64,000 bases of DNA. Source: Candidatus Obscuribacteraceae bacterium. GTDB taxonomy: Bacteria; Cyanobacteriota; Vampirovibrionia; Obscuribacterales; Obscuribacteraceae. Position numbers and translations under genes: made by a program. Position 1 is the first letter of the stretch. Every line of letters begins with the position of its first letter. The stretch covers positions 288,001 through 352,000 of the forward strand of contig JBGASG010000005.1 in assembly GCA_044229845.1 (NCBI GenBank), given 5' to 3'. The notes under the pieces are model-generated. The model saw nothing but the letters and a program-made list of their open reading frames with translations. It did no database searches and had not been told where the DNA came from. Below, one piece after another: positions 35,683 to 54,643 of this stretch.

Positions 35683-37263
35683 TCAACCTGGCGCGCCGGC
35701 CAGTTGACGGTCTTTTCGCACCGGCAGCGGATACGCGAGGATATCCATCAGCAGCTCCAACCGAGTCCCGCCTGCCAGCATTGGCAGCAAGCTGGGCAGA
35801 CTGTAGTAGTCACCGCTAAACGTATAGGTGTCAACCTCGATATTGTTTCGCGTCAGAGCCGCCTCCAGATGGTTGGAGAATTGCCCGCAGTTGAGAATCA
35901 TGACCGTAGGCAGGGTGCCCAGTTCTTGTTGATATTGCAGCATTGCATCAGCCAGGTAGGGCTTGCCGTTTTCACCTTGATCGGTGATCACGATCACTTG
36001 TTCGACGAGCTGCTTCTTGCGGCGCATCATATCTAATGCCACGCCGCACGAGGTGCCGCCGTCGGCCTTGATGCCTTTGAAAGCCTTTTCCCAGTCGGAG
36101 AGTTCGTTGCCTTTCGCTTCGATTGCGTAAGCGAGGGTGTCGAACGCGTAGACGTAGAGATTGGCCTGGCATATTGGGGCTACGATGGCGCAGAGCTGTT
36201 TTCCAATTTCAATTGCTTGTTGCATGGAACCACTCTTATCGACAAAGATTGCGGTCGGACGCTTGATCTTGGCTTTGGATTTGATCTGCTTGTCGCCGAC
36301 CTTCTCCACCTTTTGGGCCATTTCGGCATCGATGTCGGCAGCTTGCAGGGCTTGCCGCGTCTTGAGCGCGGATACGCGCTTATCGCCTTCGGCTTCCTTC
36401 AGTTTTGCTTCGATCATGCGGCGCAGATCTTTGTTGTCCATGGCACCACGCTTCTTGAGTGAAGCAAGGTTGTTGATCACTTCCTGCGGAGTCATGGCGT
36501 CGACCAGTGCCACCAGCAATGCCGGCGTGACTTGCTTGATCGCCGAGACAGCAACCCGATAGGGAATCTTGTTCTGCACGATCAGTCTTGCCTGTTCGCC
36601 TGAGTTGTTGGTCTTAGCCAGTTGCTTCAAGACGTACAGTCGACTGCCTTCCGGCGGATCGTTGTCGAAGAGCACACGCTGTGCGTATTCGCCGGGCTTG
36701 ATGCGCAGCGACGCATAGAGTGTCTTCAACGAGGAACGCGCGTGCAGCACAACATTGTCGAACTGCTCGTGATTCTTCTCGCGTTGATGCAGGTAGTCTT
36801 CGATGGCGGTGCGTACAGATCGCGGGACGGAACCCGCGACACCAGGAATGAACTTGCCGCCTTCTTCATGACCCTTGATCAAACCGATCACGCGCTCTAC
36901 CTGATAAGGAGGCAGTTCGGTGATCATCGCGATGCCGGCGTTACGGTATTCGTCGGAAAACTTTGATGTGGCCATGTACGCCGCAAACAATTGCTTCAAG
37001 TCATGCACGCTGCCGTTCTTGAAGTACCAGGCGGCGAGCGGACCGAAAAAGCGCGGATCGCGTTCGTGCACGTGTTCGAAAAGTGGCATGTGCGGTGCGA
37101 CCGCACGGTGCGGCGTGCGCAGCAGTGCGTTCAGGATCGCCAGACGAAAGTCTTGCTCGCCGGCGTTGCGTGTGCGAGCCATGAGTTCGGTGAAGTTAGG
37201 CGCAGGGGTGGTCGCCGCTTGATTGGCTCGCGCCGGTCGTCGTCCCCCTCGTCGTGTAGTCAT
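35683..37263 (-). CDS. Divergent Ro60/Rsr-like TROVE + vWA domain protein
   Basis: About 330-aa helical N-region (DPRFFGPLAAWY; MTPQEVINNLASLKKRG resembling TROVE motifs) then vWA with MIDAS VDKSGSM, GGTSCG, IVITDQGEN; adjacent Y-RNA-like genes. Confidence 0.8.
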   Translation of the reverse strand: MTTRRGGRRPARANQAATTPAPNFTELMARTRNAGEQDFRLAILNALLRTPHRAVAPHMPLFEHVHERDPRFFGPLAAWYFKNGSVHDLKQLFAAYMATSKFSDEYRNAGIAMITELPPYQVERVIGLIKGHEEGGKFIPGVAGSVPRSVRTAIEDYLHQREKNHEQFDNVVLHARSSLKTLYASLRIKPGEYAQRVLFDNDPPEGSRLYVLKQLAKTNNSGEQARLIVQNKIPYRVAVSAIKQVTPALLVALVDAMTPQEVINNLASLKKRGAMDNKDLRRMIEAKLKEAEGDKRVSALKTRQALQAADIDAEMAQKVEKVGDKQIKSKAKIKRPTAIFVDKSGSMQQAIEIGKQLCAIVAPICQANLYVYAFDTLAYAIEAKGNELSDWEKAFKGIKADGGTSCGVALDMMRRKKQLVEQVIVITDQGENGKPYLADAMLQYQQELGTLPTVMILNCGQFSNHLEAALTRNNIEVDTYTFSGDYYSLPSLLPMLAGGTRLELLMDILAYPLPVRKDRQLAGAPG

Positions 37264-37401
37264 GGTGTTGTTCCTATACCTTTAATGTTGGTGTCCTTCG
37301 GGATACCGACATCCACTATGTTGCCAACGGCAATGCGGCACCTTTATATGGTGTCCGCCTGGATAAAACGCGCGCCGGGACAGTGGACAGAGAGGTCTGG
37401 T

Positions 37402-37472
37402 CCTGTACAAGTCGGGAGAGCTTTTGAGTTACGTTTGCAGACGTGTGTAGGCTCTTCCTGTTGGAGCACAGG
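37402..37472 (-). ncRNA. Minimal Y-RNA-like element (Y7) in the leader of the Ro60-like gene
   Basis: CCTGTGC-TCCAACAGGAA-GAGC-CTACAC...GCTC-TCCCGACTT-GTACAGG: same terminal module as the array RNAs, no tRNA domain; candidate promoter TGGCGA-17-TAAAGT just upstream. Confidence 0.7.
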
Positions 37473-37712
37473 GTAAGGGTCACTTTAGCACTTGTCCGCA
37501 AAAATCGCCACGATTTTTGGCTGGCTGTTCTACCAGCCGAGACTGGCTCTGGAAGCGCGTCGACGGTGTTTTATACACGTTTTCGCTAATACGATTCGGA
37601 GAATTTACACCCATGCTGGAGCGGGTTAATGTGGTGACATAGCCCAATTGCCGGAACCACTGACGGCAGCGGGCGATGCGCTCCCACCGACCACACCCGC
37701 GAGGCTACCGCC

Positions 37713-38486
37713 ATGATGCTCACCGCTTTGCTTACCAACATCAAAGAAATTGCGAAGAACTCCAAGCCCACGTACTTCACCAAGGATACGTTCTTCGACA
37801 AGCAGTGGGGGCAGAACACAGCTTTCAACAAAACTCTGGACAAGTCTGTGTATGACCATGAGGACTGCGATGAAGATCAAGAGTCTCAACTGCGCGACGA
37901 GATTCTCGTCAGACTGAAAGCCAAGGGCGGTAGCGGCAGTTTTGTCTCCGGCATTGCGGGCGAATCGATTACATTTCTCGAGTCGTTGAAAAATCGCAAG
38001 GATGCGAAGGCCAAACAACAGCGCCTCTGCAACCAGTCGATGAACGAGCTGCTGGCGCTGATTTTCGAAATGCTCAAATCCTACGCTTACGACTACAACC
38101 ATGCCGTCGGTTACGGACCTCTGCACATCGCCATTACCGATCCGCAAATGGTGACCGAGGTGTTGCGCTTCGATCGTCAGCGCAATCCGCTCGAGTCGGT
38201 GACTTACTTCCGTGCGCGGCTCTCGACCTCGTCGCATTCGCTGGTATTGCGTGGGCAAGACGACGGCATTGTGTTTTTCATATTGCCGGTGGCGCGCGCA
38301 CTAGGATTGACCAAGCAAGAAACGAACTATGAGCCGGCGACTTTGCTGCGCATCAAGGCGGAGAACAATCTTGTCCATTGGGAAACCAAGATCGGAACAC
38401 CCTTGACACCGTCTTCGGTAGAAGCGATCTGCATGGCTGTTTTCCAGTGGTTGATTGAAGAAACCAAAGCGCACATCGCCGAATAG
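37713..38486 (+). CDS. Hypothetical protein, paralog of the downstream gene
   Basis: Shares (F/Y)E(M/L)LK.YA..YN.AVG.GP, RA.L.TS.HSL and WETK.G.PLT with the next ORF. Confidence 0.8.
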   Translation: MMLTALLTNIKEIAKNSKPTYFTKDTFFDKQWGQNTAFNKTLDKSVYDHEDCDEDQESQLRDEILVRLKAKGGSGSFVSGIAGESITFLESLKNRKDAKAKQQRLCNQSMNELLALIFEMLKSYAYDYNHAVGYGPLHIAITDPQMVTEVLRFDRQRNPLESVTYFRARLSTSSHSLVLRGQDDGIVFFILPVARALGLTKQETNYEPATLLRIKAENNLVHWETKIGTPLTPSSVEAICMAVFQWLIEETKAHIAE

Positions 38487-38519
38487 TTTTTGATTTTGAT
38501 ACAGGAGGTCGATTCGACC

Positions 38520-39281
38520 ATGCTTAACGGAATGTTCTCAGGCAACAATAAAGAGCGCAATCGCCCGACGCCGAAACCATTTTCGCAAAACAGTCGCTTC
38601 GACTGCAATTGGGGAAAGGCGTCGCCGGTTGAAAAGGCGCCGCCGCGAGCGGTCGAATCTTCGTCTTCGTCCCGGCGCACCGGCATCTATCCGCAAGTGA
38701 TCACGGGTGAGCATCCGATCGCGCTCGATGCCCGCAGCGTATCGCAAAGACTCAAGGAAACACTCGATACCGGAAACAATAGCGACGGGCATCAGCAGAT
38801 CATTTCCGACCTGGCGCCGCGCGACTTGCTGACCATTATGTATGAGCTGCTGAAGGTTTACGCCGTGGAATACAACTCGGCGGTAGGACTGGGTCCATTC
38901 TATTTAGAACTGACCAGACCGCACGAAGTGTCGGGTCCGCTGCGCCTGCAAAAGGATAGCCGTCCCTCCTCGTGGCTCACAAGAATACGAGCGGCACTGG
39001 CGACATCAACTCATTCGCTTTTGCTTTGTGCAGACGAGGGAGTGGTCACCTTCTATGTCATACCTCTGGAGCAGTTGCATGGCAGCAATGCTCTCGGCAA
39101 AGACGCGGTCGAGGGTCACGAACCGCAGACCTATTTACAGTTGAACAAAATGAGAGGCGGCGTTTTCTACTGGGAGACGAAGGCGGGGTTGCCCCTCACC
39201 ATGTCGCGTGTCGATGCCACGTGCCGTGCGCTATTTCAATGGCTCATTGAAAGAACCGCGGACCGGGTCGCTGGAGACTGA
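38520..39281 (+). CDS. Hypothetical protein, paralog of the upstream gene
   Basis: CAGGAGG RBS before ATG 38520; C-terminal domain aligns by eye with 37713..38486. Confidence 0.8.
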   Translation: MLNGMFSGNNKERNRPTPKPFSQNSRFDCNWGKASPVEKAPPRAVESSSSSRRTGIYPQVITGEHPIALDARSVSQRLKETLDTGNNSDGHQQIISDLAPRDLLTIMYELLKVYAVEYNSAVGLGPFYLELTRPHEVSGPLRLQKDSRPSSWLTRIRAALATSTHSLLLCADEGVVTFYVIPLEQLHGSNALGKDAVEGHEPQTYLQLNKMRGGVFYWETKAGLPLTMSRVDATCRALFQWLIERTADRVAGD

Positions 39282-39359: not shown

Positions 39360-39435
39360 TGGAGTGATCGACGGTAATCGAAACCGTACCTTGTCGGTTC
39401 ACAGCCGACGGCTCTGCCACTTAAGCTACGACCAC
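39360..39435 (-). tRNA. tRNA-His(GTG), atypical, CCA encoded
   Basis: GTGGTCG/CGATCAC acceptor, GTCGG-CTGTGAA-CCGAC, ACGGT-TTCGATT-ACCGT, TCCA end. Confidence 0.85.
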
Positions 39436-39439
39436 AGCT

Positions 39440-39510
39440 CTCGGGGAATTGGATTCGAACCAATATTGCAACGTTCAAAGCGTTGTGACCTACCATTAGT
39501 CGATCCCCGA
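39440..39510 (-). tRNA. tRNA-Gln(TTG)
   Basis: TCGGGGA/TCCCCGA acceptor, CAACG-CTTTGAA-CGTTG, ATTGG-TTCGAAT-CCAAT. Confidence 0.9.
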
Positions 39511-39680: not shown

Positions 39681-39755
39681 TGGCCGGAGCGGTTGGAATC
39701 GAACCAACTACCTTCTGCTTCCAAGGCAGACATGCCACCAATGCACTACGCCCCG
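39681..39755 (-). tRNA. tRNA-Pro(TGG), atypical, CCA encoded
   Basis: CGGGGCG/CGCTCCG acceptor, TCTGC-CTTGGAA-GCAGA, GTTGG-TTCGATT-CCAAC, GCCA end. Confidence 0.9.
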
Positions 39756-39862: not shown

Positions 39863-39992
39863 TTGCGACCTGCGCAAGTTATGGGAGCTGTTTTTTTGCT
39901 TTGGCGAGGAATCTCTCCTCAGGGTGGATTCGAACCACGGGCTTTCGCCTTTACCAGTTTGTAAGCTCACATTGTTGGAGCGCAGAACGCAA
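39863..39992 (-). ncRNA. Y-RNA-like RNA Y6 (T-arm only subtype)
   Basis: CTGCGC-TCCAACA..GAGC-TTACAA, CTGGTAA, T arm GTGG-TTCGAAT-CCAC, ...GCTC..TAACTT-GCGCAG. Confidence 0.7.
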
Positions 39993-40347: not shown

Positions 40348-40514
40348 TATGTTCACCGCGTCCGGGGTCAATAGCCCTGTTCATCGCATACGCCCGCTCG
40401 GAGATGAATTGGGGATTCATTCCGCACTTATTATTGCCAGCCGCGGAAATGAAGAGCCTTCATTTCCATGATTGGACAATCCCGAGTTGCAATGGGACGT
40501 GGTCCAAAGGTCTT

Positions 40515-40631
40515 GCCTGTACGAGTCGAGAGAGCCACTTTGAACACCTCCATGGCGGAGGTTTTCGGATTCGAACCGATTCCTTGAAAGGGAATTACCA
40601 GATTGTATGCTCTTCCTGTTGGGGTACAGGC
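40515..40631 (-). ncRNA. Y-RNA-like RNA Y5 (T-arm only subtype)
   Basis: GCCTGTAC-CCCAACAGGAA-GAGC-ATACAA-TCTGGTAA, T arm TCGG-TTCGAAT-CCGA, hairpin ACCTCC/GGAGGT, GCTC-TCTCGACTC-GTACAGGC. Confidence 0.75.
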
Positions 40632-40640
40632 GATACTATT

Positions 40641-40844: not shown

Positions 40845-41004
40845 AGTTCGCGTACTTTCTGTACAAGTCGAAGGAGCAGAGTTTTGGTGCTCTACCACTG
40901 AGCTATGAGGGCATAAAGCCCCCAGTAGGATTCGAACCTACGCCCACCCGCTTCGAAAGGCGATTGTATGCTCTAAATGTTAGAGTACAGATCGTCCGCG
41001 GACT
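40845..41004 (-). ncRNA. YrlA-like Y RNA Y4 with circularly permuted tRNA domain
   Basis: Terminal module encloses T arm GTAGG-TTCGAAT-CCTAC, looped acceptor TGGGGGC-TTTAT-GCCCTCA, TA, D arm GCTC-AGTGGTA-GAGC. Confidence 0.85.
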
Positions 41005-41012
41005 TTGAGCAA

Positions 41013-41161
41013 TGTATTCCGTATGAGTCGCAAGAGCGTAAACGCGGTCTCGAATTGCTCTTCCTTTGAGCTACACAGGCATGTTGCCCGCGGCAGGTTT
41101 CGAGTCTGCATACTATCGGGGTTGTCGCGTTTGTATGCTCGGGGACTTGAATACAGTTACA
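41013..41161 (-). ncRNA. YrlA-like Y RNA Y3 (degenerate T loop)
   Basis: GCAG-ACTCGAAAC-CTGC, acceptor CGCGGGC-AACAT-GCCTGTG, TA, D arm GCTC-AAAGGAA-GAGC; terminal GAGCATACA / GCTC..CGACTCATAC. Confidence 0.75.
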
Positions 41162-41167
41162 AGGAAC

Positions 41168-41223
41168 AATGTAGCAGATAAAGTTAGTGGTGTCAATAGT
41201 GGTGCGCACCATAGGTGGTGGCT
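41168..41223 (-). promoter_or_regulatory. sigma70 promoter plus upstream box (drives Y3-Y4-B3)
   Basis: AGCCACCACCTATGGTGCGCA-6nt-TTGACA-17-TACATT. Confidence 0.8.
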
Positions 41224-41367: not shown

Positions 41368-41534
41368 TGATGCGGCTGTATGAGTCGATGGAGCGGAGTA
41401 CAAAATCGAATGCTCTACTAATGAGCTACGAAGGAAAGTTCCTTAGGCAGGATTCGCACCTGCTACCGTTCGAGTGAGACAGTTTTTCAAACTGATTGTA
41501 TGTATGCTCAACCTGTTAGGTTACAGTTGCATCA
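41368..41534 (-). ncRNA. YrlA-like Y RNA Y2
   Basis: TGATGC/GCATCA outer stem; TCGAA/TTCGA anticodon-stem equivalent; T arm GCAGG-TGCGAAT-CCTGC; looped acceptor; D arm GCTC-ATTAGTA-GAGC. Confidence 0.85.
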
Positions 41535-41540
41535 GTCATC

Positions 41541-41596
41541 AATGTAGCAAAGACCGATAATGGTGTCAAGGGCGGTGCGCACCATAGATAGTGGCA
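41541..41596 (-). promoter_or_regulatory. sigma70 promoter plus upstream box (drives Y2-B2)
   Basis: TGCCACTATCTATGGTGCGCA-6nt-TTGACA-17-TACATT. Confidence 0.8.
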
Positions 41597-41737: not shown

Positions 41738-41888
41738 TGATGCGGCTGTAAGAGTCGATTGAGCTTAGATCAACTATTCGCATGCTCTTACCATCTGAGC
41801 TACAAAAGCCGAAGCCTCTGGCAGGAATCGAACCTGCGACCAAGCGGTTACGTGTGTATGCTCTACCTGTTAGATTACAGTTGCATCA
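41738..41888 (-). ncRNA. YrlA-like Y RNA Y1
   Basis: T arm GCAGG-TTCGATT-CCTGC, acceptor CAGAGGC-TTCG-GCTTTTG, TA, D arm GCTC-AGATGGTAA-GAGC, inside the CTGTAA..GAGCATAC / GCTC..CGACTCTTACAG module. Confidence 0.9.
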
Positions 41889-41894
41889 GTCACT

Positions 41895-41950
41895 AATCTA
41901 GCAAAGCCTAGAAGTGGTGTCAAGTATGGTGCGCACCATAGGTGGTGGCA
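41895..41950 (-). promoter_or_regulatory. sigma70 promoter plus upstream box (drives Y1-B1)
   Basis: TGCCACCACCTATGGTGCGCA-6nt-TTGACA-17-TAGATT. Confidence 0.8.
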
Positions 41951-42340: not shown

Positions 42341-42985
42341 TTATAAATCCAGCTCTCTATTAATAGATAGATCGCCCACCGTTACGGAATAGTTCCGCTT
42401 CTCCCCGGTGAGGATATGGCGCACCAGCACCTCCGCTGCGACAGACACCACCAGGGTGACCAGATTGCGGGCCAGCGGATAGTCGCAGATGTCGATGCCC
42501 ACGTCGCTTGGCACACGATACTTCTCGTTCCAGATGACTTCGCCGTATCCGTCGTTCATTCCGGCATGCAGGCAAGCGATGGCGTTATCGCGGCAATAAT
42601 CGGCGACCAGCCGGCGAGAAGCCGTATTGTCGAAGACATCAACCACCAGGGTTGCCCCCTTCAGAAATTTTGCCGCATTTTTCTCAGTTAATTCCTGCGC
42701 TCGCGCGGTGATTTCAACTCCCACCTCGCGATACAAAAGATTGCGCAACAACTCTGCTTTTTGCCCACCGACATCGTCCAGCGAATAGACCTGGGTACTG
42801 ACATTGTGCTCTTCCACGCGGTCCTTATCGATCACCGTCATGTTCGTCACACCCATGCGCGCCAGGGTTTCGGCAAGATTCGAGCCGAGCGCCCCCGCGC
42901 CGCAAATCAAAATGCCGGCAGCGGCAATTTTGCGCATCGCCTGTTGTCCGCGGAAAATCTGTTCGTGATGAAATCGATGGCTCAT
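42341..42985 (-). CDS. ThiF/MoeB/E1-family adenylyltransferase
   Basis: GAGALGSN, DKDRVEEHNVSTQ, KAE, DVFDN; single C-terminal Cys in DICDYP, no CxxC pairs. Confidence 0.9.
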   Translation of the reverse strand: MSHRFHHEQIFRGQQAMRKIAAAGILICGAGALGSNLAETLARMGVTNMTVIDKDRVEEHNVSTQVYSLDDVGGQKAELLRNLLYREVGVEITARAQELTEKNAAKFLKGATLVVDVFDNTASRRLVADYCRDNAIACLHAGMNDGYGEVIWNEKYRVPSDVGIDICDYPLARNLVTLVVSVAAEVLVRHILTGEKRNYSVTVGDLSINRELDL

Positions 42986-43001
42986 CTAATAATTCCTTGC
43001 A

Positions 43002-43442
43002 CTACTCGACAGCAACCAGAACTAGTCCTTTGAATCGCTGCACGCGGGCGACCGCCCGCGGTTTCTTCTCGTATTCATAAATCCATCCGCGCGCGCCGGC
43101 GCTCGTTTCGATCACACATAAAATCGGCTTCCCAAAACAAAAGCACCACGCATCCAAAGTACGGTCGTCGCGCCCGGAAGGACCAGTGAAACCCTCAGGG
43201 TGCGTGTGATAGAAGCCAATCACATCGCCCTCCGCTTCTTCTCGCGCCAGGACACGTTTGCCGTCAAACCGCACTGAGGTCTCCGAGCCCTTTGTGCGCC
43301 AACGCATCTTGGCGTGCCAGACACCATTGAGGCATTCACCCGTCAACACATAGGCAATTTCCTTGCCGCCTGGAAATTCTCCACCATCGGCAAACTTCAC
43401 TGGTCCGGAGGCGGCGGCGTCCTGCTTACCCGAGGTAGTCAT
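43002..43442 (-). CDS. JAB/JAMM (MPN+) metallopeptidase
   Basis: GFYHTHPEGFTGPSGRDD = HxH-x7-S-x2-D. Confidence 0.9.
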   Translation of the reverse strand: MTTSGKQDAAASGPVKFADGGEFPGGKEIAYVLTGECLNGVWHAKMRWRTKGSETSVRFDGKRVLAREEAEGDVIGFYHTHPEGFTGPSGRDDRTLDAWCFCFGKPILCVIETSAGARGWIYEYEKKPRAVARVQRFKGLVLVAVE

Positions 43443-44295
43443 AATAGTTGCCCGCTTCGCGCAATACTCCGACGACGCTGGTCAGGTCGAATTGCTGATC
43501 TTCCCCGCTCAAGCAAACTCCAGCACTTTGCAGTGTCAGGTCGCCGACTGCCACGTTGACCACGTGATCGCGACCGTCCATTTCAAACCGAACGGTTGCG
43601 TACTGTTGATGCTGATCAGTGTAACGAAAACTTTCCAACGTCGCGCCGGCGTGCCGCAATGCATCGCTGATGCGCGTCCGATCGTCCAGCATCGTCTCGG
43701 TCGGATCGTTACGATGCTTATGTAGATACATCATGCGGTAAGCGAGGCGCTCGCTTGGCACCATTCCGCGAGCACGCACTTCACCAGGTTTGATATCGGC
43801 TTCCAACGACCGGCGCAGAGTTCGCGAAACTGCCGGGTCTCGTTTTCGATCTACAGAATCAAACCAGAAGGCTGCGCCATCGAAGCGCGCATGAATGGTA
43901 TCGAAATTGGTGCAGCCCAGAACCAGCTGCACGGGCACCGGACCAGATAACCGCAAGCGTGTGTCAGCTTCGGAATATGCCAGCGCCCACCATGTTTTAT
44001 CTAATTGATCGACGAGCACCAGACGCACGCGAGGAAACAACGCCAGATATTTTGAGACAAGCGAAAGCGGCGCCGTTTCCACGACTTCTGCCACGCCTTC
44101 CTCTACCATGCGCAAGATACAAAATCCTGTTTCTCTCGTGCGCACTTTCATTTCATAGACAATGCCCGCCACGCGAACGCGCACCTTACCGCCTGCAACG
44201 ATCGGAGCAAGAAACGTTGTCTGCGACAACTTCTTTTCTTCCTCTTCCATTTTGGCAATCATCGCCAGCGGATCGGGCCGCTCACGTTCTGTCAT
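43426..44295 (-). CDS. Uncharacterised protein with C-terminal GxCL motif, candidate divergent E2-like/acceptor component
   Basis: Between Ubl and JAB, overlapping JAB by 17 bp; C-terminal SAGVCLSGEDQQFDLTSVVGV. Confidence 0.6.
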   Translation of the reverse strand: MTERERPDPLAMIAKMEEEEKKLSQTTFLAPIVAGGKVRVRVAGIVYEMKVRTRETGFCILRMVEEGVAEVVETAPLSLVSKYLALFPRVRLVLVDQLDKTWWALAYSEADTRLRLSGPVPVQLVLGCTNFDTIHARFDGAAFWFDSVDRKRDPAVSRTLRRSLEADIKPGEVRARGMVPSERLAYRMMYLHKHRNDPTETMLDDRTRISDALRHAGATLESFRYTDQHQQYATVRFEMDGRDHVVNVAVGDLTLQSAGVCLSGEDQQFDLTSVVGVLREAGNYYDYLG

Positions 44296-44320
44296 GATGG
44301 AGCACCGCGCACCCGGCTGA

Positions 44321-44593
44321 TTAACCGAATACGGCTTCTGGGCGCACAGTAATGTTGCCATTTTCGTGGCGTTCGATCACCGTGCTGCTCAGATGTTGGG
44401 GCGGTACTTCCATAAAACGTGCCACAGCGGCGCGAATGTCTGCATCGCTGGAACCCGGGGTCAGCTCGAGCAAATCAAGTGCGATGTCGCGGCTGCGACC
44501 TTGAATGCGTACGTGCACGACCGGACCGGTTTGCGTTTGCGGCTCGGTACCAGTGGCGCGGTTGTACAGGTTGTTGATGTCATCGTTTGCCAT
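44321..44593 (-). CDS. Small ubiquitin-like (beta-grasp) protein ending in Gly
   Basis: 90 aa, strand-strand-helix-strand-strand pattern (VVHVRIQGRSRDI..DADIRAAVARFM..NITVRPEAVFG-stop); AAGGAGG RBS; first gene of the E1/JAB operon. Confidence 0.7.
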   Translation of the reverse strand: MANDDINNLYNRATGTEPQTQTGPVVHVRIQGRSRDIALDLLELTPGSSDADIRAAVARFMEVPPQHLSSTVIERHENGNITVRPEAVFG

Positions 44594-50774: not shown

Positions 50775-52169
50775 TCAGGATTGGCGAGTGGGCTGATAAT
50801 CTTCTTCGCGCATCCCAAACGACCAGGCAACGCCGGCGCGCGCAGTACGTGTTCGCGGTGGCACTCGAAGATGATACGTTCTGAACGAACCATCCGCTTC
50901 TGGCGTGCTGTTGGTGACTTGCACCACAACTAGTGGCTCGTCGTTCTTCTGCTGAATCTCATACAGAACACCGCACTCATCGCGATGTAGTTCTTTAGCG
51001 TCGCTGGCGGTAACGAATTTACTCAGTCCGAAGCGGTCGATCATAACTCGACGCACTTCGACGTTTCTCTCGTTGATAATGTCTTCCATCGTAAATGCAT
51101 CGCGAATGACGTTTTCGGATACTCGCACCCCGTTCACTGCATGCATTCCCCAATCTCCGAATGCGACTGCATGATCACTGTCGTGGTGCGGTAGACCATT
51201 TTGCAAATGCAGCTTCGATGGACCTTCAGAAACTACGCAAACATCATCCATCGGCCACCACCAGCCACCGGCATCGAGCGCATCGAAGTAGAACTCGTGT
51301 TTTGTGGGGTGGAGGCGTTTCATAAGCTCGCACAGGCGCACCAGCATCAAGCTGCTGCCATCACTGAGCGGTGAATGGCAAGTTTGCAAATGGCGCATGC
51401 GCCACGGAACTGAGCGACAAACCTGATCGGGATCTGTCACCTCCTGTCCCAGATTAGGCACAGGCACCACAGTCGTAGCCCATGAAAAACGCGCAGCGGC
51501 TGTAGGCTCTTCGTTTTCCTTCCACTCTTTATTCTGGAACGGGACCCTCGCCTTCATCTCTTGTTGTGCCAGGATTTTCTGGACGTCTCGATGCGCGAAC
51601 AGCTCAGTTGCGTCGGCGAGGTCTGCATTAGCTAGCTGTTCGGTCATCAACGCTGCAGCGCTGTACAACGTGTCAATGCGCCACACATGGCCGGACAATC
51701 GTTCGGCATCGACTTGGAGCCCATGCCGAAGTGAGGCCTGGACGAAGTCGTTTACTGAGGTTGGGTCGACCAGAGTGAGCTTGTCACTGAATGCGGAACC
51801 GAACCAGCCTCGCAAGTCAGGCGTTCGCAATCCGCGATGGCTGGCAGCACCGAGCAAGTCCGGCACCAGAGGCATTTCGCTTGGTTCCGGTCTGAATTGC
51901 GTGTGGACGCGCTGCTCATAAAGCTGGGCAAGCAGATGCACCACTGCAATAGCTTGAAGAGGCGAGTCAATCCAGAGGAAGAAAACCGGGCGCTTTTGCT
52001 TGCGAAACTGATAGATGCGGCGAACGGCAGATTCCAGTTTCTCCCTGTCACAAGGCACGGCGCGCTCGATGCGCGGCAGCATTTCCGCCCGCAAGTCCGG
52101 TATCACCTTGAGGTAGTCGCTAAATTGTTTCTGAGAACTAGCCATTATCGCAACCCGTTGCCGTGCCAA
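50775..52169 (-). CDS. DUF6745-type protein (paralog 3)
   Basis: GGWWW, NVEVRRVMIDRFG, VTNSTPEADG, LRVPP..TARAGVAWSFG. Confidence 0.8.
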   Translation of the reverse strand: MARQRVAIMASSQKQFSDYLKVIPDLRAEMLPRIERAVPCDREKLESAVRRIYQFRKQKRPVFFLWIDSPLQAIAVVHLLAQLYEQRVHTQFRPEPSEMPLVPDLLGAASHRGLRTPDLRGWFGSAFSDKLTLVDPTSVNDFVQASLRHGLQVDAERLSGHVWRIDTLYSAAALMTEQLANADLADATELFAHRDVQKILAQQEMKARVPFQNKEWKENEEPTAAARFSWATTVVPVPNLGQEVTDPDQVCRSVPWRMRHLQTCHSPLSDGSSLMLVRLCELMKRLHPTKHEFYFDALDAGGWWWPMDDVCVVSEGPSKLHLQNGLPHHDSDHAVAFGDWGMHAVNGVRVSENVIRDAFTMEDIINERNVEVRRVMIDRFGLSKFVTASDAKELHRDECGVLYEIQQKNDEPLVVVQVTNSTPEADGSFRTYHLRVPPRTRTARAGVAWSFGMREEDYQPTRQS

Positions 52170-52183
52170 GCCTATCCCGCATG

Positions 52184-53503
52184 TCAGGTTTCAACAAGAG
52201 GTTCATATTCATTCTCATCCAAGTTGAACGACCAGGCGACTGCCTGCCTGGCTGTTTGCACGTCTGGTGGCACACGCAGGTGGTACATTTTGTATGAACC
52301 GTCCGGCTCCGGGGTTTTATTTGTGACCTGAACAACGGTCACAGGCTCGTCTGCTACCATCTCGATTCTATACAAGATGCCGCATTCGTCGCTCTGCAAC
52401 TGGCGAGCACCACTTTCACGAATGAAGTTGCCTAATCCAAACCGGTCAATCATCAACCGTCGCAATTCAACGTTTCGTTCGTTGTGAATGTCCTTTATGG
52501 TGAATGTCCTTGTGACCACGCTCTCGGGAACGCGTCTGCCGCCCAGAGCCCAAATGTCCCAATCGGCGAAGCTAATCGCCGGTTCGCTTTCGTGTCCAGG
52601 ATTATTGCCATCCAGGTGCATCACCAGGGGATTCTCTGAAACCACACAAATTTTGTCGAGTGCGAACCACCAGCCACCAGCCTCGAAGGCGTCGATGTAG
52701 TCATTGACTCGGGCATCTGCCTTGTTCAGCAAACGAGCAATCTGGTGATACAGCAGATAGCCCGATGTGAGCGGTGAATGAATTTCTTCCAGAACCTTTC
52801 TGCTCCATAGGATGCGGCGCGATACTTCCACCGAGACTTGGGAAACCATCGTTTCGGTCGGCGTACTATTAGCTCGTTGGAACTTCAACCTGGCTCGACG
52901 TTCTTCCGACCAGAGTTTCTTTTCGATCTCGAGCTCTAAATCCGGATCGAATAAACTGTTGCTGTGTGCCGAAAGCGTATCTGAAAGCAGAGAAGCTACA
53001 TTGCTCAAACGCTCCATCCTGAGGACTGTTCCTGTGACTCGGTCCAGATCTAGGTCTTCAGCCGCTGCCTTGATCGCGGCAAGTTCAGTCCACCACCTCC
53101 GATATGCATCGGCTGCTTCAGGGTCTTGCACGGTAAGTTCGTCCTGAATAGCAAATCGAAAGAGTTGCTGCAGGTCTAACGTAGATGGTGGTCTTCTGGA
53201 TGTCAGCGACACCACAGGCTGCGCAACGCGTGGCACTGGCATACGATGAAGGTTGAGTCCGCACAATTGACGTAAGAGCAACACTGCAACTACGGCACTA
53301 GCAGGCGAGTCAAAGTAGACGAAGACGACCGGAGCCTGCAATCCCCAGTGACCATAGATACGACTGACGGCCCGCTCCAACTCGTCTCTTTGCACTGGAC
53401 TGGTGCTCGCAGCCTTCTCAGCGAAGTCACGCTCAAGCTGGCGAATTTGTTCTTTGCTTTGCGCGTAAAGAGCTTCGTCAAACGGCTCGGTGTGTCGTGT
53501 CAT
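52184..53503 (-). CDS. DUF6745-type protein (paralog 2)
   Basis: GGWWF, NVELRRLMIDRFG, VTNKTPEPDG, LRVPP..TARQAVAWSF. Confidence 0.8.
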   Translation of the reverse strand: MTRHTEPFDEALYAQSKEQIRQLERDFAEKAASTSPVQRDELERAVSRIYGHWGLQAPVVFVYFDSPASAVVAVLLLRQLCGLNLHRMPVPRVAQPVVSLTSRRPPSTLDLQQLFRFAIQDELTVQDPEAADAYRRWWTELAAIKAAAEDLDLDRVTGTVLRMERLSNVASLLSDTLSAHSNSLFDPDLELEIEKKLWSEERRARLKFQRANSTPTETMVSQVSVEVSRRILWSRKVLEEIHSPLTSGYLLYHQIARLLNKADARVNDYIDAFEAGGWWFALDKICVVSENPLVMHLDGNNPGHESEPAISFADWDIWALGGRRVPESVVTRTFTIKDIHNERNVELRRLMIDRFGLGNFIRESGARQLQSDECGILYRIEMVADEPVTVVQVTNKTPEPDGSYKMYHLRVPPDVQTARQAVAWSFNLDENEYEPLVET

Positions 53504-53518
53504 AATTGCTGCACCGCA

Positions 53519-54643
53519 TTATGTTTCATGCAAAGGTTGGTATTCGCTTTCACGCAAATCGAACGACCAGGCAACCGCCTGGCGCGCCGAGCTCATTGTC
53601 GGCGGCACCCGCAGATAGTACTTGCGGAAGGTGCCATCAGGTTCCGGCGAACTATTGGTGACCTCAACAAGGCACATGAAAGGCTCGACTTCCAGCGGCG
53701 TCTCTACGTGATACAAAACACCGTAATCATCGCTGCTGATTACATGCGAATTGGATTGCTTGATGTAATTATCCAGCCCCAGTCTATTTAACAGGATGGC
53801 GCGAATCTCGGCGTTTTCTTCGAATTGCACATCGGCTGCCGTCACCGGCTCGCAGATGATACGCGCTGGAACTATCCTGCCATTAACCGCAAACACATCC
53901 CACTTGCCGGCAAAGCTGACGGCGGGTCCGTCCAGGCAGTGCGGCATATTGTTAGTCACATTGAAAACAGTCGGGTTGTCGCACCAGACCACGATATCGT
54001 CGAGGGTCCACCACCAGCCTCCGGCTTGGAAAGCCTCGAAGAAGCCGCGGTACTCCTCGGCACCAAACAGTCCAATACTCTGAAAGAAACTGACTAACAG
54101 CAAATCCGCCGCATCGACTGCCGGTGCATGATAGTGAGCCGGCAAGAAGGCTGAGTGACGTACGGATGCCATGCCGCCGCCCGCTTCTTTTATCTCCGGA
54201 ATGCGCTTCTTCAGCGATTCGGCTTCCTGTCGGCCGATTTCCTCGATGATTGAGTGAGCGATGTCTGGCGGGTTTCCTTCGCCTTTCTTGGGAATCGCCG
54301 CATCAAACCAGGAACGCAAACTGATCATCTCGAGCCAGCGGCTGGCGGGAGCCTCGGTGCGACCGACCACTATCGGCAGCTGGCTGCGACTGGGCAGGGA
54401 GAACGCAAACCCGCGTATCCCGCAACGATTGGTGAGAAAGTTTACTGTCGCCATGGCTTCTGCCGGCGACGCGCAGCGCAGAAACAGCGACGGAACCTCA
54501 CTGGACCACTGCGTGTAGACCTGGTCGACAGCCGCTCGCAACCGCTCGAAATCGACAGAAGCTGTGGTCAGTGCCTGTTGCGTGAACTCGGCTTTCGCTT
54601 TGAGGACGTGCTCAGCGAGCAGTTCATGGAGTTGTGAGGACAT
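53519..54643 (-). CDS. DUF6745-type protein (paralog 1)
   Basis: GGAGGTGA RBS; GGWWW, NAEIR, VTNSSPEPDG, LRVPP..SARQAVAWSF. Confidence 0.8.
   Translation of the reverse strand: MSSQLHELLAEHVLKAKAEFTQQALTTASVDFERLRAAVDQVYTQWSSEVPSLFLRCASPAEAMATVNFLTNRCGIRGFAFSLPSRSQLPIVVGRTEAPASRWLEMISLRSWFDAAIPKKGEGNPPDIAHSIIEEIGRQEAESLKKRIPEIKEAGGGMASVRHSAFLPAHYHAPAVDAADLLLVSFFQSIGLFGAEEYRGFFEAFQAGGWWWTLDDIVVWCDNPTVFNVTNNMPHCLDGPAVSFAGKWDVFAVNGRIVPARIICEPVTAADVQFEENAEIRAILLNRLGLDNYIKQSNSHVISSDDYGVLYHVETPLEVEPFMCLVEVTNSSPEPDGTFRKYYLRVPPTMSSARQAVAWSFDLRESEYQPLHET

Follow-up and report, generated by a model that had tools for sequence, protein, structure and literature searches.

The 64,000-nucleotide stretch of Candidatus Obscuribacteraceae bacterium analysed here (NCBI GenBank assembly GCA_044229845.1, contig JBGASG010000005.1, positions 288,001 to 352,000; the window hereafter) carries genes for a ubiquitin-like protein (Ubl), a cysteine-bearing protein that we call X, a JAB/JAMM metallopeptidase and a minimal activating enzyme (E1) and, further downstream, for a divergent paralogue of Ro60 (Ro hereafter). 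Comparison across bacteria and phages shows that Ubl, X, E1, Ro and a tRNA-shaped RNA family of their own, the Y-like RNAs, form one inherited module. This module is real, conserved and larger than was first noted, no described system matches it as a whole, and its chemistry is something we infer. The best reading is a Ubl thioester cascade that tags protein at a Ro60–Y RNA particle, for which we see about an even chance. The protein genes are the following:

44321..44593, minus strand: Ubl, 90 amino acids, predicted beta-grasp, C-terminal RPxAVFG (here ending PEAVFG) with invariant Gly90
43426..44295, minus strand: X, 289 amino acids, invariant Cys261 (codon 43513-43515), candidate Ubl-transfer enzyme
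43002..43442, minus strand: JAB/JAMM metallopeptidase (JAB), 146 amino acids, an optional part, 31 bits to PF14464 against a cut-off of 25
42341..42985, minus strand: minimal ThiF-like E1, 214 amino acids, invariant Cys167 (codon 42485-42487), without CxxC and without a rhodanese domain
35683..37263, minus strand: divergent Ro60/Rsr paralogue, 526 amino acids, TROVE-like ring and vWA domain with an invariant MIDAS-type (metal ion-dependent adhesion site) DKSxSM..T..D

One inherited module in bacteria and phages

The four genes from Ubl to E1 are indeed as tightly packed as the first-pass annotation had described them, with gaps of 25, -17 and 16 bp, all on the minus strand; their operon belongs to a larger unit that reaches position 35683, beyond the coordinates it had been given. 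The start of X that yields 289 amino acids agrees with the closest homologues (289-290), and an alternative frame of 311 amino acids would run into Ubl. Relative to the closest relative, whose X is 93% identical, synonymous and non-synonymous codon changes number 13/4 in Ubl, 82/18 in E1, 75/18 in X and 52/13 in JAB.

A genome scan found 236 relatives of X, and 80 X-anchored loci from at least eight phylum-level groups were analysed, with hosts among Obscuribacterales, other cyanobacterial-lineage genomes, Planctomycetota, Chloroflexota, Desulfobacterales, Abditibacteria, Bacteroidia, a spirochaete and a selenomonad. Many of these loci end at contig ends, and the counts are of genes within the available DNA: E1 in 68, Ro in 60, Ubl in 48 (one false match of 49 dropped), JAB in 35 and Y-like RNAs in 42, five of which gave training sequences for the RNA model, with no matches in reversed decoys. 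Where at least 8 kb is available on both sides, Ro is present in 27 of 36 loci; three of the other nine were tested, and all three genomes have Ro elsewhere. Upstream of X, 42 loci have Ro, which in 19 of them is its immediate neighbour. Outside this class and in phages the genes usually run Ubl–Ro–X–JAB–E1, and Y-like RNAs often separate Ubl from Ro (at least 12 loci). It could be argued that a stress island merely co-regulates the Ubl operon with the Ro–Y RNA genes next to it and that the two do not act together, since E1 and Ro are 5.1 kb apart in the window, with two opposite-strand genes between them, and Ro is outside the retrieved locus in the nine loci just mentioned. We hold this to be very improbable, given that in many loci Ubl and X have Ro and the RNAs between them, that Ro turned up in every one of the three genomes tested and that the linkage persists in a distant subfamily (E about 1e-15 to the family profiles).

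This distant form occurs in 3 of 221 Planctomycetota genomes, where it is matched by the Cys domain of X only (E about 1e-15). On two contigs its order is Ro–X–JAB–Ubl–E1, with the E1 Cys, the X Cys and the Ubl Gly all kept, and it has 78 homologues, including named Myxococcus and Pyxidicoccus proteins. Closer to the window, X, Ro, Ubl and E1 match in the same 10 genomes of an even sample of 151 from this class; when the RNA model was run on a nearly identical sample of 150, it matched 3-8 times in each of those 10 and once, more weakly, in each of six others. Because the 10 genomes are kin, all of one family, their co-distribution speaks for joint inheritance and not for independent events; the correlations between gene-family distances (0.41-0.68) likewise reflect shared descent and were not used as evidence. 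Pairs of Ro and X that lack Ubl and E1 in the locus also occur (L012, L016, L017, L025 and L034), and in three genomes these are second copies beside a full operon.

Phages carry the module as well. An alignment-based scan of IMG/VR found 26 loci with X, three near-duplicate pairs included, on contigs of up to 467 kb, and a single-sequence scan of viral contigs had found none. Ro is present in 25 of them, E1 in 23, JAB in 21 and Ubl in 20 (one false match dropped), the order is nearly always Ubl–Ro–X–JAB–E1, and the RNA model finds units in most. That large phages carry the module suggests a part for it in translation-level counter-defence. Among the neighbours in phages are a ribosome recycling factor between Ro and X (two loci), an RNA ligase before Ubl (one locus), an IscS-like enzyme before Ro (one locus) and a PARP after E1 (two loci); these neighbours lie at L101:7860-8393, L103:6499-6969, L105:6648-7304 and L102:1-1128 and in L094/L095.

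Other genes around the bacterial loci are more variable. In the 80-locus comparison, the TPR gene upstream of the operon and the two opposite-strand genes are not conserved parts of the module. An RtcB-type repair operon was considered as the identity of the locus and rejected: RtcB is found in 1 of 80 loci and, in the window's genome, elsewhere. A second vWA gene is inserted in nine loci, and the Ro paralogue at L046:6246-9227 carries an intein with a LAGLIDADG endonuclease. Arrays of 10-29 tRNA genes end just before Ubl in 4 of 58 loci scanned, all in Phycisphaerae-type planctomycetes (L049, 29 genes; L067, 18; L071, 10; L079, 27). Three tandem DUF6745 genes lie at 50775-54643 of the window (minus strand).

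The Ro paralogue and its Y-like RNAs

The first-pass annotation had missed seven related non-coding units on the same strand between 41,886 and 37,397, with tRNA genes and the Ro60 paralogue following; scores are bits to our RNA model, R1.

41740..41886, minus strand: Y-like RNA 1, outer stem, T arm, acceptor-like hairpin and D arm; 94 bits, training member; Rfam YrlA 38 bits (gathering 69); TTGACA promoter-like site at 41923
41370..41532, minus strand: Y-like RNA 2, training member; promoter-like site at 41569
41013..41162, minus strand: Y-like RNA 3, training member; promoter-like site at 41196
40853..40996, minus strand: Y-like RNA 4, 124 bits, training member
40511..40635, minus strand: Y-like RNA 5, shortened tRNA-like part; 74 bits, training member
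39864..39991, minus strand: Y-like RNA 6, 63 bits, E 1e-14; outside the training set
39681-39755, minus strand: tRNA-Pro(TGG), by ARAGORN and Rfam
39440-39510, minus strand: tRNA-Gln(TTG), by ARAGORN and Rfam
39360-39435, minus strand: tRNA-His(GTG), by ARAGORN and Rfam
37397..37477, minus strand: Y-like RNA 7, minimal (outer stems only), directly upstream of the Ro gene; 46 bits, E 5e-10; outside the training set

A T arm, an acceptor-like hairpin and a D arm follow one another inside a closing stem in these RNAs, which is the order of YrlA. The Rfam YrlA model (RF02553) matches four units, the best with 38.3 bits and thus below its gathering threshold of 69, no YrlA match at gathering was found in four relative loci, and the YrlA 5' motif GNCGAAN0-1G is present in none of 50 full-length units. 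In an alignment of 47 units, 93.5% of the cells are paired, as against 27-48% in slid controls, and two-sided changes occur in 22 of 29 pairs and in 8 of 9 of the outer stem, figures that favour the structure somewhat since it was drawn by eye from the same alignment. Judged by sequence, these RNAs are a distinct Y-like subfamily. An artefact of tandem tRNAs was considered and discarded: overlaps with ARAGORN predictions were removed, the closing stems covary and reversed decoys gave no matches.

The TTGACA sites of RNAs 1-3 are in register, and the same palindrome, TATGGTGCGCACCA, stands just upstream of each (about 41200-41213, 41573-41586 and 41925-41938, one copy imperfect) as a candidate operator. 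Across the region promoter-like sites are as frequent as in shuffled sequence (6 versus 6.4), and only the register of these three sites stands out. Between RNAs 5 and 6, the non-coding segment 40160-40510 is 96% identical in the nearest relative (neighbouring spacers 89-92%), has no Rfam match, recurs in one other genome of the same genus among 61 and lies under the deepest RNA-library contigs; it is possibly a further non-coding RNA. RNA libraries of three studies yielded contigs over the array, over Ubl and over part of both Ro and E1, with JAB and the 3' part of X uncovered; such contigs reveal neither strand, ends nor level, and we do not count them as proof of expression. On contig C8 of the window's genome an eighth, minimal unit is found at 227051-227128. 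Two paralogous genes of unknown function, 30% identical, occupy 37713-38486 and 38490-39281 (plus strand) between the tRNAs and Ro, and a third paralogue lies on C8.

The Ro gene is classed as a divergent paralogue because Pfam TROVE (PF05731) misses it, with no match in the window's genome while controls matched. The family profile (positions 208-455) matches RO60 (9nen, E 6e-6), phage-type TROVE (9l5y/9kop, 3.5e-4), Ro (1yvp, 1e-3) and Rsr (2nvo, 0.013), and vWA_Ro60 is found in 18 of 46 members. The MIDAS motif DxSxS..T..D is present as D342, S344, S346, T404 and D428, all invariant in the 46 sequences. Among the lysines of Ro, K180, K287, K301, K328 and K343 are conserved.

Conserved residues and the possible acceptor of the Ubl

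In the reading that we favour, E1 would adenylate the C-terminus of Ubl and take it over as a thioester on Cys167, as E1-family chemistry suggests. Ubl would then pass to Cys261 of X, which would play the part of a conjugating enzyme (E2), whether or not it descends from one. X would use its N-terminal helix and OB folds to dock on the Ro–Y RNA particle, where it would discharge Ubl onto a lysine, either in Ro itself or in a protein that the particle holds, and JAB, where present, would trim tailed Ubls and remove conjugates. The setting may be the control of RNA surveillance under translational or tRNA damage, in hosts and in large phages.

The residues needed for such a cascade are conserved. 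Ubl ends in Gly, as first described: Gly90 is invariant, the C-terminal Gly is found in 49 of 49 aligned bacterial sequences, and all 48 bacterial Ubls in the 80 loci end in it. Ubl has no Pfam family and no NCBIfam match, and a sequence search of the PDB gave chance-level matches only (e.g. uL23). The nearest annotated structural neighbours of its Atlas model are the Prok_Ub, PB1, ubiquitin and Ufm1 clusters, all of them beta-grasp-containing, yet with TM (template-modelling) scores of 0.45-0.53 that fall short of the tool's bar for naming. E1 has just one domain, for adenylation and of the ThiF type (PF00899, E 7e-33). Its reported lack of CxxC pairs extends to the whole family (0 of 69 members have them), and a domain search found no rhodanese domain in it. 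The single late Cys that had been singled out is invariant (Cys167, 69 of 69) without being the sole conserved one, C28 being kept in 68 of 69 and C138 in 69 of 69; the distant subfamily retains C28 and C167 only. E1 scores below every NCBIfam equivalog cut-off, and with neither CxxC pairs nor rhodanese it lacks the marks of the ThiF/MoeB cofactor E1s. Its profile aligns with solved E1s mostly over the adenylation core, and Cys167 lies after that core; known E1s use a crossover-loop Cys, according to the parts of PMC11601596 consulted. The absence of a link to cofactor pathways also stands: the neighbours, conserved or scanned, include no gene for thiamine, molybdopterin or cysteine synthesis.

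X consists of an N-terminal helix, two predicted OB folds, a helical linker and a C-terminal alpha/beta domain (AlphaFold2 model, mean predicted local distance difference test score 91.5). Its family comprises 1,199 representatives at 50% identity (E 0.001 or better). Conservation of its Cys had been proposed as a decisive check, and none of the 121 first homologues or the 29 phage copies lacks Cys261, which is also present in 343 of 347 stored homologues (341 by pattern and two by eye), the other four being N-terminal fragments that end before the domain. The local description needs correction: 25 residues follow SAGVCLSG, which had been taken for the end of the protein, and the motif is G-[IV]-C-L, with Gly at -2, and not GxICL. 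In the AlphaFold2 model Cys261 sits between strand 254-257 and helix 271-284, a position behind the beta-meander and ahead of a crossover helix that recalls the E2 Cys. The alignments of the true E2s Pex4, UBE2S and UBE2N take in 84-88 of the 94 Cys-domain residues, and most rows that rank above them cover the sheet only. Searches with X and its Cys domain returned little: X has no Pfam family, one chance-level NCBIfam row and, like Ubl, no PADLOC match; the Cys domain gave chance-level matches only in a PDB sequence search and in an Atlas feature search (top 0.81, DUF1815); and in the Foldseek search that the first-pass annotation had proposed nothing reached E 0.001, and the matches listed included no E2. 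The OB folds are better placed. The tandem unit resembles the cold-shock and S1 domains of RNase II (E 1.8e-4), a viral structure library yields S1/OB matches only, and the best superposition is on the protein-threading ring of the proteasomal ATPase Mpa (root-mean-square deviation 3.9-5.2 A).

A replacement of X in the Planctomycetota bears on the function of these domains. Two further genomes of the 221 have the Ro paralogue but neither Ubl nor the Cys domain, with generic ThiF matches only, and in both the gene right after Ro encodes a Ser/Thr kinase whose last ~70 residues match the helix and first OB fold (OB1) of X (E 1e-9 and 5e-6 within six loci); one of the two has a 98-bit Y-like RNA. 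The fusions are:

L088:7472-8554, directly after the Ro paralogue: Ser/Thr kinase–OB1 fusion
L089:10962-12005, directly after the Ro paralogue: Ser/Thr kinase–OB1 fusion

Since a kinase that ends in helix and OB1 sits right after Ro, we infer from these sequences that helix and OB1 form a docking module for the Ro particle, and the arrangement suggests that the slot after Ro holds a protein-modifying enzyme.

The JAB matches Prok-JAB above the cut-off, and its catalytic motif E-x(n)-H-x-H-x7-S-x2-D is invariant or nearly so in 34 aligned sequences. From this intact motif, and from a Ubl that is already mature, the first-pass annotation had argued for deconjugation, an argument that is weaker than claimed: JAB is often missing, and some phage Ubls have a tail for it to trim. 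Among 22 phage Ubls, nine continue past the Gly in a short tail, and each of these is accompanied by JAB, so that maturation is one real job of the enzyme; JAB also accompanies 11 of the 13 untailed ones. JAB is a maturase in some lineages and probably a deconjugase where it is kept; it is not required, and its presence alone is no proof of conjugation. JAB beside a mature Ubl also occurs in sulfur chemistry (CysO/Mec).

Several observations weigh against a thioester cascade to protein. First of all, X shows no detectable descent from E2s: E2-fold chains reach a best Z of 3.7-4.9 against its Cys domain, no higher than some unrelated folds do; a comparison by hhalign with 25 bacterial UQ_con E2s gives 0.95% over eight columns around the Cys, where shuffled comparisons reach a maximum of 8.8%; the HPN motif is absent, with D-L-T in its place; and no Pfam E2 (UQ_con, Prok-E2) is among the families listed for 81 members. 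Second, the OB folds suit RNA binding as well as protein docking, and no result singles out protein over an RNA or sulfur acceptor. Third, JAB is dispensable, being present in 35 and missing from 33 of the 68 loci with E1. Fourth, a cysteine-desulfurase-like (IscS-like) enzyme stands directly before Ro in phage locus L102. Finally, the co-distribution within the class is among kin and gives no count of independent events, and the kinase replacement comes from two incomplete, probably related genomes (51% identical in the kinase), with no third in a wider search. Of the loci without JAB, 25 of the 33 have E1 directly after X, and JAB was absent genome-wide in four of five module-bearing genomes tested. 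A complex prediction of two E1 copies with Ubl and the Cys domain of X scored 0.02, which gives no answer and is evidence neither way.

Conjugation can be E2-free, as with the archaeal SAMPs, and here E1 alone could conjugate Ubl, with Cys261 as a terminal acceptor, a protease nucleophile or a redox or metal site of an RNA-binding adaptor. The missing E2 homology, the weak fold evidence and the Ro–X pairs without Ubl and E1 would all fit. We nevertheless find this quite unlikely, as no genome of the class sample has one of X, Ubl and E1 without the others, E2s are loosely matched both in whole-domain topology and in the Cys context GxC(L)x7[F/W], and no conserved His-Asp partner is evident beyond H215. 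The classical His is also lacking in some bacterial E2-like classes, according to the parts of Iyer et al. 2006 (PMC1779556) consulted. The proposal that X is an unrecognised E2 is upheld as to its invariant Cys and not as to E2 profile similarity or the HPN motif.

The acceptor, for its part, need not be a protein. Presented by Ro, a damaged tRNA or Y-like RNA could receive Ubl from X, at one of its ends or on a base, which would suit the RNase II-like OB folds of X, the fact that RNAs and an RNA-binding ring are the sole constant companions of the module, and the finding that no lysine is conserved in X. The literature searched holds no precedent for this, and the best superposition of the OB unit, on the protein-threading ring of Mpa, points to protein, as does the kinase replacement; we therefore consider RNA tagging rather unlikely.

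Urm1, TtuB and ThiS are thiocarboxylate carriers, and Ubl might likewise serve a sulfur relay, in which a persulfide or acyl disulfide at Cys261 would thiolate tRNA or the Y-like RNAs held by Ro. The ThiF class of E1, the RNA-binding type of the OB folds, the tRNA arrays directly before Ubl in 4 of 58 loci, the IscS-like enzyme of L102 and the optional JAB are all in keeping with it. On the other hand, there is neither CxxC nor rhodanese in E1, the kinase–OB1 fusion in the place of X speaks for protein modification, and no PP-loop thiolase, rhodanese or conserved desulfurase was found among the conserved or in-operon neighbours scanned; for PP-loop thiolase and rhodanese, the scan covered 41 of 66 bacterial in-module open reading frames (one Ro frame included) and 121 phage frames. 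A sulfur relay accordingly strikes us as improbable, if worth keeping in view.

The first-pass annotation had argued for conjugation, and tagging of protein at the particle remains the best reading of the invariant X Cys, the late Cys of E1, the Gly of Ubl and the constant company of the three genes, less so the casting of X as an E2. A bolder version, which we put forward tentatively and would on balance expect to fail, has bacteria and giant phages share an unrecognised ubiquitin-like pathway and makes X a new RNA-guided equivalent of E2 and ligase (E3), in which the Ro60 ring with interchangeable tRNA-mimic RNAs would select the target, a protein or possibly an RNA, for Ubl conjugation.

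Comparison with known systems

Operon class 6D is equated with PRTRC. As described in the parts of Iyer et al. 2006 (PMC1779556) consulted, it has, like the module, separate genes for Ubl, JAB, E1 and a Cys-bearing partner, and E2-like proteins without the classical His; its Prok_Ub is a near structural neighbour of the window's Ubl. It differs in that the window's E1 reaches 47 bits on PRTRC_ThiF (cut-off 145) and X has OB folds and no Prok-E2 match. Ro and the RNAs here take the place of its alpha-helical protein, and the main text of PMC1779556, as far as consulted, mentions no TROVE, vWA or OB fold. The Bil system (BilABCD) of anti-phage ubiquitination shares Ubl, E1, a protein in the E2 role, JAB, cysteine chemistry and the lack of an E3 (PMC11601596, in part). 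BilD, on the other hand, is a multi-domain IAD-AAD-CYS E1 by the same account, whereas the window's E1 is a single domain of 214 amino acids, and the present module is found in phages themselves. Bub (6E/DUF6527) works by Tyr/Ser oxyesters together with DUF6527, and Cap2 of CBASS Cap2/Cap3 is an E2-E1 fusion acting on the cyclase; the parts of PMC11601596 consulted link neither to Ro or RNA, and further Ubl systems are treated in PMC7159879 (seen in part). At this locus we find a single-domain Cys E1, a separate X and no DUF6527 or cyclase neighbours, which sets it apart from Bil, Bub and Cap2 alike.

Urm1/Uba4, TtuB/TtuC/TtuA and SAMP/UbaA are dual sulfur-carrier and modifier systems that combine a beta-grasp protein with a ThiF-class E1 in an RNA context. 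In contrast to them, the module has no PP-loop thiolase or rhodanese and has a dedicated second Cys protein. Characterised bacterial Ubl pathways act in anti-phage defence or sulfur transfer. If our reading is right, the module, with its new Y RNA subfamily and a Cys enzyme of no assigned family, would link RNA surveillance to covalent protein tagging; on the bolder version it would be the first ribonucleoprotein-directed ubiquitin-type ligase. No pairing of Ro60 or Y RNA with Ubl and E1 was found in the literature searched, although a mention in Burroughs & Aravind 2016, Burroughs 2008/2009/2011 or Sim 2020 is possible.

The bacterial Ro60–Y RNA particles characterised so far either hold a nuclease by a tether (PMC4201824) or are encoded beside genes for RNA repair (PMC7824862), and jumbo phages have ROT/TROVE for RNA repair, with no Ubl link mentioned in the parts of PMC7824862 consulted; on the bolder version such particles would gain an effector other than a nuclease or an RNA ligase. 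The bacterial Ro60 (Rsr)–YrlA system described by Chen et al. 2014 (PMC4201824, in part) shares with the window a Ro-like TROVE-vWA gene, tRNA-mimic RNAs on the same strand within about 4.5 kb and, in those RNAs, the order of T arm, acceptor-like hairpin and D arm. The window's Ro is, by comparison, too divergent for Pfam TROVE, its RNAs lack GNCGAAN0-1G and have a conserved outer stem of their own, and its partners are Ubl, E1, X and JAB, ubiquitin being unmentioned in the parts of PMC4201824 consulted. The module offers a direct handle on the role of the tRNA-like domain of Y RNAs, and its small size, one RNA with four or five proteins, puts reconstitution within reach.

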